A stretch of 64,000 nt of DNA from NCBI GenBank assembly GCA_038065475.1, contig JBBTQY010000015.1, positions 6,608 to 70,607 on the forward strand, written 5' to 3'. The notes beneath the pieces were generated by a model that was not told the origin of the DNA, did no database searches, and saw only the letters and a list, made by a program, of their open reading frames with translations. This document shows positions 20,560 through 26,430 of this stretch, piece by piece. The DNA comes from Patescibacteria group bacterium. Its GTDB lineage: Bacteria > Patescibacteriota > Minisyncoccia > Ryanbacterales > GWA2-47-10b. Every line of letters begins with the position of its first letter. The first letter of the stretch is position 1. The translations under genes were made by a program, and so were the position numbers.

Positions 20560-21036
20560 TTATGATACCAAAGGCGGCTTCTTTTCGCCCATGCGCATTA
20601 TTTTAAGGTTTGCTTTCTTCAAAAGCTCTCGGCTATTTTTGTGTTTGATAATTTTCATTGCCTTTTCATAGGGCGCCCAAACAAAATTCTTGTGTTCTTC
20701 CGATATTTTGATAGTGCGTCCAAAAACTTCACCTAAATAAAAGGTGATAAATTTAAGTCGTTGCTCAGCCCCTTCAGTTTTCGGTGGCCATTGATAGCGG
20801 AAATGAATCGTTTCTTTGTATCCGGGGATAAATTTCACACGCGAGATACCCGTCTCTTCCTCGATCTCACGACGAGCCGCATCAATAGGTCGCTCGCCTT
20901 CCTCAAGCCGTCCGCGTGGAAACGTCCAGTGATTGCGCGTCGCATACTGAAGAAGCACGTACCAGACGCGCCCACCCTGCCGCCGGAACAAGATCGCTCC
21001 CGCGGATCGCTCAACTTTCACATCTTTATCTGTCAT
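20560..21036 (-). CDS. NUDIX hydrolase
   Basis: The Nudix box GRLEEGERPIDAARREIEEETG is present. Confidence 0.8.
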   Translation of the reverse strand: MTDKDVKVERSAGAILFRRQGGRVWYVLLQYATRNHWTFPRGRLEEGERPIDAARREIEEETGISRVKFIPGYKETIHFRYQWPPKTEGAEQRLKFITFYLGEVFGRTIKISEEHKNFVWAPYEKAMKIIKHKNSRELLKKANLKIMRMGEKKPPLVS

Positions 21037-22757
21037 AAGAGATGACGCTTTTGTTTTGGAGTCGCCAAAAACTTCTGTAACGCCGGCAATGCAAGCGTGT
21101 TAAGAACACGGTTTTTGGGAAGCCCTGCGCGTCGCGCTTGTCCTATACCATACTCCAAATACGAGAGTTCTGCAAGCGAATGAGCATCGGTATCAATACT
21201 AAACATCGCACCCGCATCTACTCCGCGCCTTATATGATCATCTTTCAAATCAAGTCGCCATGGATGCGCGTCGATCTCTAAAACCGTGTGAGTTGAAATT
21301 GCATATGTGATGATACGATCAATATCAACTGCATACGGGTCTCTTTTTTTAAGAACGCGTCCAGTCGGATGAAATAAAATATCAACGTGTGGATTCGACA
21401 TTACGCGCATGATGCGTTCTGTCTGTTCTGACTCTGATAAATTAAAATGCGAATGAACCGCGGCACCTACGATATCAAGTTCGGCGAGCACCTCATCAGA
21501 AATATCGAGCGAGCCATCTTTCATAATATTTACTTCCGCACCCTTCAAGATCGTGATGCCGGATATTTTTTTATTGAGCAAATCAATCTCGCGCATTTGA
21601 CGACACAATTTTTTTTCATCTGATCCGCCCGTCATCGCCAAGCTACGCGTATGATCAGTGATCGCAATATACTCATGGCCCAAGCGCTTGGCTTCACGCA
21701 CCATCGCCTCGAGTGAGTCTGTGCCATCCGTCCAATCTGTTTGTGTTTGAAAATCCCCCCGCAAGTCGTTAAAGCTAATTAAGTTTTTCGGCGGAGGTAT
21801 AATTTTGTCGCCTTCGCGTAACTCGGGCGGCGGCATTACGATACCGAGCGCATCGTATACTTCTTCCTCTGTTGCACCCGCAATCATACGCGTACCACGA
21901 TACAATCCGTATTCATTGAGTTTTAATTTTTTCTTGAGTGCGAGTGACCGCAAAACCACATTGTGTTCTTTCGAACCGGTAAAATAAATGAGTGCGGCCC
22001 CAAAAGATTTTTTGGGCAACACACGTACATCGACATCGATACCGTCTTTCAGATGCACCGAGCTCTTGGTCTCGCCGTGCGCGATGATATGTGCCACATC
22101 TTCGCGCACAACAAACGCGCTCATCACACTATCTGCATTTGTAGCTTCTACTAAAATATCAATGTCGCCCGATGTCTCGCGCCACCGTCTAATCGACCCC
22201 GCAATCTCTACGCGTGAGACACCCTTGATGTTTCGTAAATCGTCGGTAATGCGTCGTGCAATCGGCAATGCCTCCCCCAACAAAAATCTTCCGCGTGAGG
22301 ATTCAAAAAATTCGATACCTTTTAAAATCTTCTCCTCTGATTTCAAACCAAATTTTTCAAGCTTGCGAATTTTGCCCGCGAGCGCTGCTCGCTTGAGACT
22401 TGCTACATCTTTTACTTTTAATTTTTCATAAAGTGTTTTTATCGCTTTAGGACCAATACCCTCGATGCTTCGCAACTCCTGCATATTGACCGGCATTTTT
22501 TTTCGCATAGCATCTAACTCGCGCACGCGACCAGTCTTCAAAAATTCTTCGATTGTTTGAGCAATACCTTTGCCAATACCAGAAATTTCTTCGAGAGCTT
22601 TTGTGCCGCCATTTTTATAAATCCCTCGCACATCGCCATCGAAGCTTGAGAGTGTCTCAGCTACTTTTTCGTACGCACGCGCTTTAAACGGTTCATTGAA
22701 TACCGTAAAATACTCGGCTATCGCAAACAGTATATCTAAAATATCCTTATTCTTCAT
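21033..22757 (-). CDS. polX: DNA polymerase X family protein with a C-terminal PHP domain
   Basis: The N-terminus has HhH / Pol-beta-like motifs (GIGKGIAQTIEEFLKTG; GIGPKAIK) with a GDIDILV nucleotidyltransferase motif, followed by a PHP histidinol-phosphatase-like domain. Confidence 0.8.
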   Translation of the reverse strand: MKNKDILDILFAIAEYFTVFNEPFKARAYEKVAETLSSFDGDVRGIYKNGGTKALEEISGIGKGIAQTIEEFLKTGRVRELDAMRKKMPVNMQELRSIEGIGPKAIKTLYEKLKVKDVASLKRAALAGKIRKLEKFGLKSEEKILKGIEFFESSRGRFLLGEALPIARRITDDLRNIKGVSRVEIAGSIRRWRETSGDIDILVEATNADSVMSAFVVREDVAHIIAHGETKSSVHLKDGIDVDVRVLPKKSFGAALIYFTGSKEHNVVLRSLALKKKLKLNEYGLYRGTRMIAGATEEEVYDALGIVMPPPELREGDKIIPPPKNLISFNDLRGDFQTQTDWTDGTDSLEAMVREAKRLGHEYIAITDHTRSLAMTGGSDEKKLCRQMREIDLLNKKISGITILKGAEVNIMKDGSLDISDEVLAELDIVGAAVHSHFNLSESEQTERIMRVMSNPHVDILFHPTGRVLKKRDPYAVDIDRIITYAISTHTVLEIDAHPWRLDLKDDHIRRGVDAGAMFSIDTDAHSLAELSYLEYGIGQARRAGLPKNRVLNTLALPALQKFLATPKQKRHLL

Positions 22758-23019: not shown

Positions 23020-24027
23020 TTATACCAAATTTTTATTTATAAAATTTTCAATCCTTCCTTTAAGTTTCTGAGTGTTACCATGGCTTATCATTCCTAAATA
23101 TGACTGTATTGTTTCTCTTTTATGGTGACTCGCATTGATACCACGAAATATTCTCTTTTTTGTAGTCGTTCTCAATACTCGGTAATCGGGGAAATGCGTC
23201 CAGCCGAGGAAATCGACACCCGATGCAAAAGTAGTTATTGATACCTTATCAGGATGTAATTGGAGTTTCAATCGCTCCTGTAAAAAATTGCTAATATGAT
23301 TCAAAATATTTTCAAGCCATTCTTTATTTTGCGATAGGATAACAAAATCATCAGCATATCGGATATAATATTCAGCTTTTAGTTTATGTTTCATAAACTG
23401 ATCAAACTCGTTCATATAAATATTTACGAGAAGCTGACTCGTGAGATTACCGAGCGGCAAACCAACGCCTATTCGTGTTGAGTGAAAGCTGGACACAACA
23501 TGCGAGACGAGCCGAACAACGTCTTTGTCAAAAATATACCCATCGACGATTTCCAAAAGTATTTTTTGATCTATCGAGGCAAAAAACTTTCGGATATCGC
23601 ATTTAAGAACCCAGACTGTTTTGGTATGATTTTTTGATACTCTTCCGGCAAAAGCGCGAAACCCGTTCATCGCCCTATGCGTTCCTTTGCCTTTCCTACA
23701 TGAATATGAATCAGCGACAAATGTTTTATCAAAAAATGGATAGAGCGCCCTATATAAAACGTGATGCAACAGTCTGTCTCGAACACATGCCTTGTGAATA
23801 TTGCGAGGTTTTGGATCGGAAATATTAAACGCGTGGTACCCTCCATGCCTGTATGTTTTGTTTTTCAAATCGTCGTGGAGAGATTGTATGTTATCCGATA
23901 ATCTATACCGAAACGCCTGAACATCTTTTCTGTTCCTTTTGCCCTTCAAAAACTCCCGCCAAGCCGCAAGCAAATTTTCTTTGGAAATGATATCATCGTA
24001 CGTATGAATAAATTGCTTGCGACCCAT
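23020..24027 (-). CDS. Diversity-generating retroelement (DGR) reverse transcriptase
   Basis: The ORF is 335 aa. It has RT motifs, including YADDFVIL, and a motif-4 variant LPLGNLTSQLLVNIY ([I/L]GxxxSQ), which is characteristic of DGR RTs rather than group II intron or retron RTs. It has no maturase/X domain. A TR/VR pair lies 0.4-1 kb away. Confidence 0.8.
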   Translation of the reverse strand: MGRKQFIHTYDDIISKENLLAAWREFLKGKRNRKDVQAFRYRLSDNIQSLHDDLKNKTYRHGGYHAFNISDPKPRNIHKACVRDRLLHHVLYRALYPFFDKTFVADSYSCRKGKGTHRAMNGFRAFAGRVSKNHTKTVWVLKCDIRKFFASIDQKILLEIVDGYIFDKDVVRLVSHVVSSFHSTRIGVGLPLGNLTSQLLVNIYMNEFDQFMKHKLKAEYYIRYADDFVILSQNKEWLENILNHISNFLQERLKLQLHPDKVSITTFASGVDFLGWTHFPDYRVLRTTTKKRIFRGINASHHKRETIQSYLGMISHGNTQKLKGRIENFINKNLV

Positions 24028-24424
24028 ACTCCTGAAAGTACCCCCCCCCCGCCCAACTTCGCAACCAAAACTGATCCCGGTTGTCTTAAAACTAAAAGAC
24101 GCCTACGGACTTTGGCAAAAATATCTTGCTGACTTTCCCAAACAAAATCGCTACACACTCGGCTCTAAAATAGATGATTTATTTCTTACGTCCATTGAGT
24201 ATTGTTTTTTAGCGAGCTACGCATCAAAAGATACAAAGATTGGACTTCTTGATCGAGCTATCTCTCGAGTAGATCTTCTAAAGCTTCTTTTGCAACTGGC
24301 ATGGGAAGTACGCGCACTCGATAGCAAAAAATATGTACATCTTGGTGAACGTCTTGTAGAAGTTGGGAGAATGTTGGGCGGTTGGAGAAAGGGCTTACTA
24401 TCAAAAACTCCCACCTCGAAGTAA
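24017..24424 (+). CDS. avd: DGR accessory variability determinant (Avd-like four-helix-bundle protein), encoded on the strand opposite to the RT, TR and target gene
   Basis: The segment ...LKDAYGLWQKYLADFPKQNRYTLGSKIDDL...LGERLVEVGRMLGGWRK matches the Avd / 23S-IVS four-helix-bundle pattern (cf. Bordetella phage Avd ...IAEVGRILGSWIA). Only a TTG start (24017) is in frame. A C10 tract at 24041-24050 lies inside its 5' end. Confidence 0.6.
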   Translation: MRPILLKVPPPRPTSQPKLIPVVLKLKDAYGLWQKYLADFPKQNRYTLGSKIDDLFLTSIEYCFLASYASKDTKIGLLDRAISRVDLLKLLLQLAWEVRALDSKKYVHLGERLVEVGRMLGGWRKGLLSKTPTSK

Positions 24425-24438
24425 GGCGGGAGAAACGC

Positions 24439-24556
24439 GGGAGTTGCTTGAGAAAACACGATTGCCGGCATTCCAGCGATTGTCGTTCTGCGGGTTGGCG
24501 TTCACGTTCCACTTCTCGTCGTCGGAGTTCCAGTTGACGTTGACCGTGAAGATCTC
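24439..24556 (-). repeat. DGR template repeat (TR)
   Basis: An approximately 117-nt segment is near-identical to the VR at 24948-25064. All of the roughly 22-25 mismatches have T on the plus strand (= A on the minus strand) in the TR, against various bases in the VR. A 2-nt indel sits near the 5' end. Confidence 0.8.
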
Positions 24557-24914
24557 GGTTGTAATGTGGCCACCATCATCTTTACCACCGCCCATCGAAT
24601 ACTCTCCGGGTTGTATCAAACATGGGACATCGAAGTCCGCCAATGGTAGCCACCAACTGCTGTTGTTTTTTAAGAATACGCTAAACATACTCTCGCAAAA
24701 GCCGTAGCCTTGACAATCCTGATGCTTAGTATATTAAAGCCCTCTGCCCAAGCCGTAACCGGAGCAATACAAAAACTTCATTATCTAGATTAGCAAAAAT
24801 TATAAAAACAGAGAATAAATCAGTATAACAAAAACGGTCCCCTGAACCCTTCGGCATGCGCCAAAGAGTCCAAGGGACCGAGAGCCCAAGTGCGCAAGGG
24901 CTCTGTTGCGAGGA

Positions 24915-25565
24915 TCAGCCCGCCTGCGCTGAAGCTTCGGCGGGCAAGCAGTTGCTGGAGAAAACACGATAGCCGGCAACCCAGCGACGGTCGAGCCGCG
25001 GGTAGGCGCGCACGCACCACTCCCCGCCGTCGGAGTTCCAGCGGACGCTGACCGCGAAGACCTCGGCGTTGACCCCACGAACATAGAAGATGTTCGCGTA
25101 ACCGTTTGCGAGGAGCGCGCCTGCGCGACCTTTCGGCTGGCGCAAAATCATGCCTGCGAGGTAGGCCGAGAATGCGAAGGCGTTCTCGAAGACGTGATGC
25201 TCGGGAAGCTCTCTCCTGATCTCCGCGTCGTTTGCGGGCTTTGCGAGATCGAACGAGATGGCCTTTATCGCAGGAAGCGACTCGACTGGCCTTGCGGCCG
25301 GGAGAATCCGGTCTCGAAAACCGTCCCACACGTAAAGACTTTCGCGCGTCTTGTAGAATGCGGCCGGGTCGAAGGCATCGGGACGGGCGGGGAGGGTGAT
25401 CTCACCCACGCGCGCCAACCTCTTGACCATGTTGACCACCCACTCCCCTGCATTGACGCGGCGAACCGCCTCGTTGGGATCGGTGATGCCCATCTGCGCC
25501 ATGAGGTTCTTGACGAGCGCGTTAAGTCTCCCAGGCAGGACGTCACTGATTGCGAAGTCTGACAT
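24915..25565 (-). CDS. DGR target protein. Its C-terminal region is likely a C-type-lectin / FGE-like fold carrying the VR. No signal peptide is evident.
   Basis: The ORF is 216 aa with an AAGGAG RBS 8 nt upstream. Its last 49 codons hold the VR. It is GC-rich (unlike the RT and avd). The final 9 codons form a GC hairpin. Confidence 0.7.
   Translation of the reverse strand: MSDFAISDVLPGRLNALVKNLMAQMGITDPNEAVRRVNAGEWVVNMVKRLARVGEITLPARPDAFDPAAFYKTRESLYVWDGFRDRILPAARPVESLPAIKAISFDLAKPANDAEIRRELPEHHVFENAFAFSAYLAGMILRQPKGRAGALLANGYANIFYVRGVNAEVFAVSVRWNSDGGEWCVRAYPRLDRRWVAGYRVFSSNCLPAEASAQAG
24918..24945 (-). other. GC-rich hairpin immediately 3' of the VR (candidate DGR homing hairpin/cruciform)
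   Basis: GCCCGCC-(14 nt, containing the palindrome GAAGCTTC)-GGCGGGC. It overlaps the last 9 codons and abuts the stop codon. Confidence 0.4.
24948..25064 (-). repeat. DGR variable repeat (VR) at the 3' end of the target gene
   Basis: The VR encodes EVFAVSVRWNSDGGEWCVRAYPRLDRRWVAGYRVFSSNC. The TR-encoded counterpart is EIFTVNVNWNSDDEKWNVNANPQNDNRWNAGNRVFSSNS. The TR AAY (Asn) codons fall at the variable positions. Confidence 0.8.
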
Positions 25566-25803: not shown

Positions 25804-26430
25804 TCAAAAGAGCGAGACTTGCGGTGATTCTTCTTCGGAAGATTTTTTTGTTTCTGTAATTTCTGGTTTAATCACCTCAACTTCTCCCGAAACAACAGCT
25901 GGCAGTTTTTGAAACGTTTCTTTGAATTGATTGAGCACGGTCGTGCCGCGCAGCGCTGCTGCTGGATGAAACATCGGCATGATTTTATATTTTCCAACCG
26001 TAAAAGTTTTTCCTTGGTCACGAGAAATTTTCGCATCAGGCAAAAAATAATTCATAGCAAACCTTCCCAGTGGCACGATGATACGCGGGCTGATGATTTC
26101 GATCTGACGCGCAAGATATGGTTTATATGCCTCAATCTCTTCGGGTAATGGATCGCGGTTGTCGGGGGGTCTCCGCTTCACAATGTTCGTAATATATACT
26201 TGCTCTCTCTGCCAACCAATACTTTTAATACACTCAGTGAGTAACTCTCCTCCTCTCCCTACAAACGGACGCCCCAATCGATCTTCATGAAAACCTGGCG
26301 CTTCACCAATAAACAATACTTCTGCATCTTCGTTACCTTCGCCAAATACCAGACGAGATTCTTGTAGCGGCAACAAAGCATCCTCAATCATTTCTCGCTG
26401 GAGATCTGCGAGTAATTCTTTTTTGTTCAT
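25804..26430 (-). CDS. udg: Uracil-DNA glycosylase, family 4
   Basis: The family-4 UDG signature is present (GEAPGFHEDRLGRPFVGRGGELL...HPAAAL). Confidence 0.8.
   Translation of the reverse strand: MNKKELLADLQREMIEDALLPLQESRLVFGEGNEDAEVLFIGEAPGFHEDRLGRPFVGRGGELLTECIKSIGWQREQVYITNIVKRRPPDNRDPLPEEIEAYKPYLARQIEIISPRIIVPLGRFAMNYFLPDAKISRDQGKTFTVGKYKIMPMFHPAAALRGTTVLNQFKETFQKLPAVVSGEVEVIKPEITETKKSSEEESPQVSLF

Follow-up and report, generated by a model that had tools for sequence, protein, structure and literature searches.

A length-variable repeat in the first codons of avd as a candidate switch of a Patescibacteria diversity-generating retroelement

Introduction

The prototype diversity-generating retroelement (DGR) is that of Bordetella phage BPP-1, whose parts follow the order mtd-avd-TR-Sp-brt, TR being the template repeat (PDB 4DWL, 8UB7). 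The present work concerns a complete DGR found in a 64-kb stretch of contig JBBTQY010000015.1 from a Patescibacteria group bacterium (this whole stretch is hereafter called the window), with the target gene and its variable repeat (VR), the TR and the reverse transcriptase (RT) gene on the minus strand and the gene of the accessory protein Avd on the plus strand. The two elements have in common an RT with the motif [I/V/L]GxxxSQ, which is the signature of DGR-type RTs (PMC7826257), an Avd of the four-helix-bundle type, adenine-specific differences between TR and VR, a VR at the 3′ end of the target gene and, possibly, a GC-rich inverted repeat 3′ of the VR; the inverted repeat of the window occupies the position of the BPP-1 cruciform element. 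They differ in the location of avd, which in the window is on the opposite strand and 3′ of the TR, and the RNA 5′ of the TR cannot be avd sense. The counterpart of Sp in the window lies 3′ of the TR and is antisense to the C-terminal codons of avd. The distance from TR to RT is 414 nt in the window, and the corresponding spacer of BPP-1 measures roughly 140 nt. We know of no repeat in the avd gene of BPP-1.

The DGRs of the candidate phyla radiation (CPR) are closer to the window. In the classification of Wu et al. 2018 (NAR 46:11, PMC5758913), architecture B3 is written 'TR-(avd)-RT', the parentheses denoting the reverse strand, and it makes up 90% of the CPR DGR set, the data being those of Paul et al. 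2017 (Nat Microbiol 2:17045). These CPR elements and that of the window agree in gene order and orientation, in their Patescibacteria hosts and in the single adjacent target gene, with no difference in layout. It is nearly certain that the window DGR, with the order target(VR)-TR-(avd)-RT and a Patescibacteria host, is a member of B3. Wu et al. 2018 make no mention of a repeat in avd, of overlapping 5′ ends or of a hairpin after the TR. The searchable literature contained no link of DGRs or avd to homopolymers, simple repeats, phase variation, contingency or avd frameshifts; an earlier notice is possible, the article of Paul et al. 2017 lying outside this search. The layout is known, and we found no description in the searchable literature of an avd gene controlled by a repeat.

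Two other kinds of system are comparable. Contingency loci include the poly-G/C tracts in surface genes of Neisseria and Campylobacter and the tetranucleotide repeats in the mod 'phasevarion' genes of Haemophilus and Neisseria. The avd genes described below share with them a repeat of 1, 2 or 4 nt after the start codon, frame-shifting alleles among near-identical strains and repeat types that vary from lineage to lineage. Unlike these loci, avd codes for an accessory subunit of a hypermutation system and not for a surface or restriction–modification gene, its hosts are environmental CPR bacteria, and it is known here from length alleles. Reversible mutator switches, formed by repeats in mismatch-repair genes such as mutL and mutS, offer the second comparison: in both cases a hypermutable repeat would gate the capacity to generate mutations and produce subpopulations with and without elevated variation. 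The avd repeat would differ from these switches in acting on one site (a single VR) instead of the whole genome, and in enabling a mutator instead of disabling repair. How DGR activity is controlled is, to our knowledge, little understood, and the unchecked rewriting of a functional protein ought to carry a cost. We consider it likely that the window carries a B3 DGR whose avd is a repeat-controlled contingency gene gating mutagenesis.

Results

The start of avd in the window

A run of ten C residues (C10) lies between a conserved ATG (24004) and the four-helix-bundle body of Avd (the coordinates of all features are given in table 2). It is the only G/C homopolymer of at least 8 nt in the window. 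At this length the ATG and the Avd body are in different frames, and the ATG opens a product of 42 aa that ends at 24132; a C9 or C12 run puts it in frame and gives an Avd of 139 or 140 aa, respectively. Because C10 shifts the conserved ATG out of the Avd frame, the TTG at 24017 is left as the only in-frame start. The initial annotation had identified this codon as the only in-frame start and had noted its 11-nt overlap with the RT ATG (24027), as we confirm, the TTG being the sole ATG, GTG or TTG opening the full Avd frame. It had overlooked that its own start coordinate, 24004, is a conserved ATG one frame off, and that the C10 run stands between this ATG and the Avd body. The TTG is not conserved in related loci and has no Shine–Dalgarno sequence. 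With avd starting at the conserved ATG, the divergent avd and RT genes overlap at their 5′ ends by about 21–24 nt.

The residues encoded in the Avd frame after the run (…QPKLIPVVLKLKD…) are conserved, and changes are found at third codon positions from at least five codons before the domain. The related loci have no conserved start codon between the run and the Avd domain, and a stop codon is often found just before the run. Since coding periodicity precedes the domain and no conserved start follows the run, translation must enter through the run. CTG 24071 and ATC 24074 were considered as non-canonical starts and rejected, the corresponding codons varying synonymously in relatives.

Conservation of the repeat in related loci

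The related loci comprise 80 genome loci fetched by the Avd protein and 80 metagenome loci fetched by the RT, 160 in total; more than 7,900 RT homologues are found at E<=1e-60. Both the ATG, some 20–23 nt inside the RT ORF of the other strand, and the position of the C-run are conserved in these relatives, and the length of the run varies from 7 to 13 nt, with a mode of 9–10. Of 143 loci, 120 carry a tract of at least seven C residues in the 70 nt 5′ of the Avd body. In a census that covered the 110 nt preceding this body, again in 143 loci, 119 had poly-C, seven had other simple repeats, 12 had none and five were masked by N; a simple repeat is therefore present at the avd 5′ site in 126 of the 138 unmasked loci. 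The repeats other than poly-C are (GA)n, (AG)n, (CA)n/(AC)n and (GCCA)n, and one locus of the census has a poly-A run plus a C8 tract. Some of the 12 loci without a repeat carry decayed tracts and some a plain ATG. The repeat units measure 1, 2 or 4 nt, every one of which shifts the reading frame. Of the 122 G/C runs of at least 8 nt in 847 kb of loci, 114 fall in this 80-nt spot.

In 118 of the 120 loci with at least seven C residues, an upstream ATG is open into the tract; it shares the frame of the Avd body in 36 of them and does not in 82. The latter consist of 45 loci in frame +1, 26 in frame +2 and 11 with ATGs in both other frames.

Annotated gene models follow the frame. Full-length avd calls (125–153 aa) are found solely for in-frame alleles; in the out-of-frame alleles among loci L161–L169, L185–L189 and L177–L181, avd is called from internal TTG or GTG starts, with 104–109 aa, or is absent. 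Database Avd sequences of the clade are therefore often truncated at the N-terminus.

Several assemblies are irregular at or near this position. In L008, L039, L076 and two further loci, about 25 N stand exactly at the position of the avd 5′ repeat, and the end of contig L203 falls within its C-run; these observations fit masking or assembly breaks at a heterogeneous repeat. Locus L032 has G-runs of 12, 18 and 28 nt in the RT-proximal region, 90–161 nt 5′ of the Avd body, which are probably an assembly artefact.

Length alleles among near-identical strains

The repeat was compared within 10 strain groups, that is, sets of near-identical contigs, eight of which share an identical RT protein (table 1). 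All strain data are consensus assemblies. Seven of the 10 groups are polymorphic for the length of the repeat, and no indel other than this was found. A change of length moves avd between a full-length and a truncated form in six of these seven, the stubs having 14–42 aa. The repeat is the only indel in 2.3–2.6 kb in the group P0104, and in 2.7 kb between L015 and L017. The latter two differ by 24 substitutions, 23 of which are in the VR, and since the substitutions are concentrated there, the DGR of this pair is probably active.

Table 1. Repeat alleles and state of avd in 10 groups of near-identical contigs.
Group	Repeat alleles	avd product
P0104	C10 in 8 contigs, C11 in 2 with a linked single-nucleotide polymorphism (SNP), among the matches listed	C10 full length from ATG; C11 24 aa
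P0034	C9, C10, C11	C9 and C10 full length from different ATGs; C11 truncated
P0030	C9, C10, each in two independent sources	C9 16 aa (OFF); C10 125 aa (ON)
P0079	(GA)12, (GA)13	Both full-length Avd, from different ATGs
P0050	(GA)11, (GA)12	(GA)11 OFF; (GA)12 ON
P0108	(AG)9, (AG)12, (AG)13	132-aa Avd from (AG)13 only
L015/L017 (two metagenome-assembled genomes (MAGs) of different studies)	C10, C9	C10 ON; C9 OFF
P0048	(CAGC)8 in all 3 contigs	ON, 141 aa
P0044	C9 in all 5 contigs	ON
Window/L190	C10 in both	Conserved ATG out of frame

A sister contig of the window is L190, a 304-kb contig from Hainich H41 groundwater (ENA ERZ1292624), which is also the source of the window's strain; it is 99.98% identical to the window over 6 kb. 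The VRs of the two are identical and the RT genes are one non-synonymous SNP apart. An RT protein identical to that of the window (P0001) is annotated as belonging to a Patescibacteria group bacterium MAG.

Judged from the sequences, a site that is kept while its sequence is not, repeat types that differ between lineages and alleles that toggle the frame match a simple-sequence-repeat contingency locus.

A separate cluster of differences was observed in the target gene of the P0104 contigs. Region 267–337 of L161 differs from L165 and L166 by 6–17 substitutions, which are not adenine-specific and are placed some 150 nt 5′ of the VR; these contigs have the same VR (481–606). The cluster may represent a second patch of variation or a tract of recombination, or may reflect a mixture of strains.

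Gene order and identity of the components

The initial annotation had described the arrangement of target, TR and RT on the minus strand, with an Avd-like open reading frame (ORF) on the plus strand between TR and RT, as unusual. Its coordinates are all confirmed (table 2), and the arrangement itself proves to be the norm of the clade. Nearly all of the 80 genome loci bear the title of a CPR/Patescibacteria lineage or of an unclassified bacterium, and the titles of seven name Bdellovibrionales or Gammaproteobacteria. The RT gene is divergent and upstream of avd in 77 of them, the remaining three having no RT sequence, and the divergent arrangement is found in 142 of the 142 loci that contain both genes among the 160. 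A TR with adenine-specific mismatches adjoins the avd stop codon on the opposite strand, at a median distance of 16 nt, in 109 of the 127 loci with enough flanking DNA, and its partner copy is found about 400–600 nt further on. An antisense avd is a family-wide trait, already published as B3 and standard for the clade, and the layout is unusual solely relative to the Bordetella phage prototype. The sole locus in which the best Avd match has the other orientation relative to RT, and is distant from it, is L147 (Ga0182030_10000056), which may contain a second element or a different architecture.

Table 2. Features of the DGR in the window, in order of position.
Feature	Position	Strand	Remarks
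DGR reverse transcriptase	23020..24027	−	335 aa; Pfam RVT_1 E=6.5e-27; LGNLTSQ and YADD motifs
TGaTATCAT, extended −10-like	23988..23996	+	7 nt 5′ of ATG 24004; inside RT codons
avd leader from conserved ATG	24004..24040	+	MNKLLATHTPEST...; overlaps first 24 nt of RT ORF on the other strand
TTG start	24017..24019	+	Sole canonical in-frame start of the C10 allele
Avd ORF from TTG	24017..24424	+	135 aa; Pfam bAvd 51 bits, cut-off 40
TACTTT, −10-like hexamer	24035..24040	−	Directly after the G-run, 7 nt 5′ of RT ATG
C10 homopolymer	24041..24050	+	37 nt after ATG 24004, 26 nt before Avd body
Avd four-helix-bundle body	24077..24424	+	115 aa and stop
Hairpin and UUUUU	24403..24432	−	10-bp stem 24432..24408, U-run 24407..24403; 10 nt 3′ of TR; overlaps avd stop codon
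TR	24442..24558	−	117 nt, 34 adenines; convergent with avd
Terminator-like hairpin and T-run	24826..24880	−	Stem 24880..24835; 21 bp, −39.3 kcal/mol; 3′ of target gene
DGR target gene	24915..25565	−	216 aa, VR at 3′ end; GC 0.62, GC at third codon positions (GC3) 0.76
GC-rich inverted repeat, 7-bp stem	24918..24945	−	Just 3′ of VR and its putative initiation of mutagenic homing (IMH) site; −20.6 kcal/mol
VR	24950..25066	−	117 nt, inside ORF 25565..24915

The identity and the strand of the Avd gene were borne out by hidden Markov models and by structure. In addition to the bAvd match, NCBIfam DivGenRetAVD matches residues 21–125 of the ORF with E=1.2e-17 and 64 bits, which is below the 80-bit equivalog cut-off. 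A single-sequence AlphaFold model of residues 21–135 (pLDDT, the predicted local distance difference test, 92.8) was used for a fold search, in which the best PDB match was the four-helix-bundle Avd of Bordetella phage, 4DWL (template modelling score 0.83–0.89, root-mean-square deviation 1.6 Å), followed by the Avd chains of cryo-electron microscopy entries of DGR ribonucleoproteins. PDB sequence searches with the single Avd sequence and with a 39-sequence profile gave no match, and the fold search alone succeeded. A better Avd homologue on the minus strand was sought, and neither strand of the window yielded a second Avd: 140 of the 143 Avd queries match at 24100 on the plus strand, and two give weak noise elsewhere.

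All 22 mismatches between TR and VR over their 117 nt are at TR adenines (22 of the 34). The 3′ ends of the repeats, where the IMH and IMH* sites of a DGR are placed, contain a single non-A difference, the TR having ...AACTCC and the VR ...AACTGC. The folding energy of the inverted repeat 3′ of the VR is unexceptional taken alone (z −1.4). No family was found for the target protein in a Pfam search; as regards a C-type lectin or Ig fold carrying the VR, there was one weak match to a lectin, 6GXS (E=7.6e-4), and the single-sequence model was too poor for use (pLDDT 41.8).

The composition of the target gene is foreign to its own cassette, with a GC3 of 0.76 compared with 0.33–0.43 for RT, avd and the flanking genes. 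The same is observed across the family: among the VR-bearing ORFs of 109 related loci, the median GC is 0.559 for target ORFs and 0.396 for RT, and in 67 of 101 loci the GC of the target ORF outside the VR is higher than that of RT by over 0.10. This high GC content is not accounted for by A-to-N mutagenesis of the VR.

The DGR of the window is flanked (20560–22757 and 25804–26430) by genes for a PolX-family polymerase with a PHP domain, a NUDIX hydrolase and a family-4 uracil-DNA glycosylase. The presence of these DNA-metabolism genes is probably a coincidence; they are not conserved beside related DGRs.

Hairpins and candidate promoters

A GC-rich hairpin with a U-run directly follows the TR on its strand (−17.9 kcal/mol, z −3.2). 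A hairpin with a T-run is found at this place in 121 of 138 loci, the numbers for the controls being 0 on the opposite strand, three in a control segment and three in shuffled sequences. Its position is independent of that of the avd stop codon across relatives. Conservation of the outer three pairs is accompanied by covariation of the inner six: paired cells make up 88.7%, compared with 50–56% when the partners are slid, and 221 cells show double changes, compared with 90 in shuffles, none of the 500 shuffles reaching as high. An Rfam search of the region found no family for the hairpin, the one match, HgcG (E=0.56), being due to chance. This structure looks like either an intrinsic terminator of a discrete TR RNA or a structured 3′ domain of the DGR RNA. 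In Bordetella, such a structured 3′ domain is located in the Sp region; Avd binds to it, and it also provides the site of priming (PMC7826257).

The second hairpin, between the target gene and the TR, is exceptionally strong (z −7.5), and its 21-bp stem implies that target and TR would be separate transcription units. A perfect TATAAT is found on the minus strand just downstream of it (24804..24799).

A scan of the avd/RT overlap with a sigma-70 model detected no consensus promoter. Two −10-like sequences are nevertheless placed 7 nt upstream of the start codons. On the avd side, the arrangement TGnTAnnnT-N7-ATG is found in 30 of 45 close loci, and TGaTATCAT is a candidate promoter for a leaderless avd mRNA. 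On the RT side, the hexamer following the G-run (the C-run read on the RT strand) is enriched over 120 loci for T at position 1 (70%), A at position 2 (55%) and T at position 6 (66%); in 32 of 45 close loci the G-run is immediately followed by TAnnnT, and in 24 of the 45 N7 and a start codon come next; TACTTT is a candidate RT promoter. Because each of the two hexamers lies inside codons of the other gene, we only infer their role as promoters. Taken together, these elements favour separate transcription units over an obligatory antisense read-through.

Discussion

The proposed switch

Slipped-strand mispairing at the repeat would make avd a contingency (phase-variable) gene, with appreciable rates of change between ON and OFF. 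The Bordetella RT, bRT, depends on Avd for cDNA synthesis even on non-DGR templates (PMC7826257). Because of this requirement, the avd repeat would gate the mutagenic retrohoming of the whole element, switching DGR mutagenesis ON and OFF heritably, reversibly and in subpopulations. The C10 allele of the window would be OFF for Avd, or at best allow it to be weakly made from TTG 24017, and the loss of one C or the gain of two would bring it to the ON state. Separate promoters that face each other are probable for RT and avd. The hairpin after the TR is probably either the point at which the TR transcript terminates or the 3′ domain of the DGR RNA, and avd need not be read antisense. The arrangement of the genes alone is of little consequence, being textbook for the clade, and the anomalous TTG start would be a symptom of a length-variable repeat that sets the frame of avd. 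The non-standard regulation of the accessory factor suggested in the initial annotation is thereby supported, with a different mechanism, namely a hypermutable repeat in the 5′ coding region of avd.

The evidence tips us slightly towards a wider proposal, that DGR hypermutation in CPR bacteria is under a heritable, reversible and stochastic switch, hypermutable simple repeats having entered the first codons of avd on repeated and independent occasions; RT transcription may be coupled to it.

Several points weigh against the proposed switch. The share of in-frame ATGs is not above chance, 36 of 118 being about the one third that unrelated frames would give, which is neutral as regards a switch. 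The VR is identical between the ON and OFF alleles of the groups P0104 and P0034. C10 is present in both assemblies of the window's own strain (the window and L190), and no switching is documented in that population. TTG 24017, which is in frame at C10, could yield some Avd, and slippage of the ribosome or of RNA polymerase on poly-C could blur the ON and OFF states. Both the switch and the termination at the hairpin are deduced from consensus assemblies.

Alternative explanations

Slippage could also be the whole function of the repeat. It would then be bypassed, RNA-polymerase or tRNA-Pro slippage giving some product from any allele, and it would serve as a rheostat that keeps Avd low. The conserved frameshifts in the poly(A) tracts of endosymbionts provide a parallel, and the near-even spread of the frames (36/45/26/11) looks as if none were required, the tract being kept regardless of frame. 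Against this stand the di- and tetranucleotide repeats at the same site, which are poor substrates for slippage on the transcript or the ribosome and classic ones for slipped-strand mispairing of DNA, and the length alleles observed directly at the DNA level in seven of 10 strain groups. We regard a bypass as unlikely.

The antisense position of avd might instead be an exceptional rearrangement in which a TR–RT co-transcript controls avd by antisense transcription or interference. TR and RT do share a strand, avd lies between them on the opposite one, a simple scan found no consensus sigma-70 promoter for RT or avd, and read-through of the hairpin is possible. The layout, common to the clade, is no exception, and most close relatives have −10-like hexamers at the 7-nt distance 5′ of the two start codons. 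Because a covarying, strand-specific hairpin and U-run stand directly 3′ of the TR (121 of 138 loci compared with 0–3 of 138 in controls), an obligatory antisense transcript from TR to RT is doubtful. Of the co-transcript proposed in the initial annotation, the antisense position of avd between TR and RT stands and the obligatory read-through is weakened; that antisense transcription governs avd seems to us very unlikely.

It is about equally improbable that TTG 24017 is the true start of a constitutive avd, with the C-run encoding a poly-proline linker. This codon does open a 135-aa ORF containing the entire Avd body. It has, however, no Shine–Dalgarno sequence before it and no conserved counterpart, an in-frame GTG or TTG being found upstream in just seven of the 82 out-of-frame loci, and in many relatives a stop codon in the Avd frame lies one or two codons 5′ of the tract. 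Selection for proline would neither keep a pure C homopolymer of 7–13 nt in AT-rich genes nor exchange it for (GA)n or (GCCA)n in other lineages.

The repeat could also act mainly on RT, as a G-run in the spacer or at the edge of the RT promoter (TTGCGA-N8-G10-TACTTT-N7-ATG) or in the 5′ untranslated region, where it would tune transcription. The hexamer following the G-run, with its spacing in the close loci and its T/A/T enrichment over the wider set, speaks for such a role. The distance from the repeat to the RT start nevertheless varies, from about 13 nt in close relatives to about 38 nt in others, repeats of 18–32 nt such as (AG)9–13 and (CAGC)8 cannot preserve promoter spacing, and the repeat is always located between the avd start codon and the Avd body. 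A main function as RT Shine–Dalgarno sequence or promoter spacer was dropped on account of the variable RT distance and of the 18–32 nt repeats elsewhere, and we give little credence to RT as the principal object of the repeat. An action on RT is not exclusive of a repeat-controlled avd, and the G-run may additionally influence the RT promoter.

Finally, that the frame differences are homopolymer errors of sequencing or assembly, avd being intact everywhere, is scarcely credible in spite of the five loci masked exactly at the tract, the contig that ends inside it and the implausibly long G-runs nearby in L032, since alleles recur across independent samples and pipelines (among the matches listed for P0104, C10 in eight and C11 in two contigs with a linked SNP; for P0030, C9 and C10 each from two sources), dinucleotide repeats differ by 1–4 units, and runs of 9–11 nt could not plausibly suffer errors at a rate that would displace the ATG from the frame in about 70% of consensus assemblies.

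Implications for CPR bacteria

Gene callers truncate avd to 104–109 aa or miss it, and surveys may consequently undercount Avd-containing DGRs or misplace the starts of their avd genes. If control of avd by the repeat is true, a repeat switch in the essential accessory gene would be a simple and general means of control in the CPR, where the natural reservoir of DGRs is largest. DGR-armed and DGR-silenced cells would then coexist in each population, under a contingency locus placed over a diversity generator.

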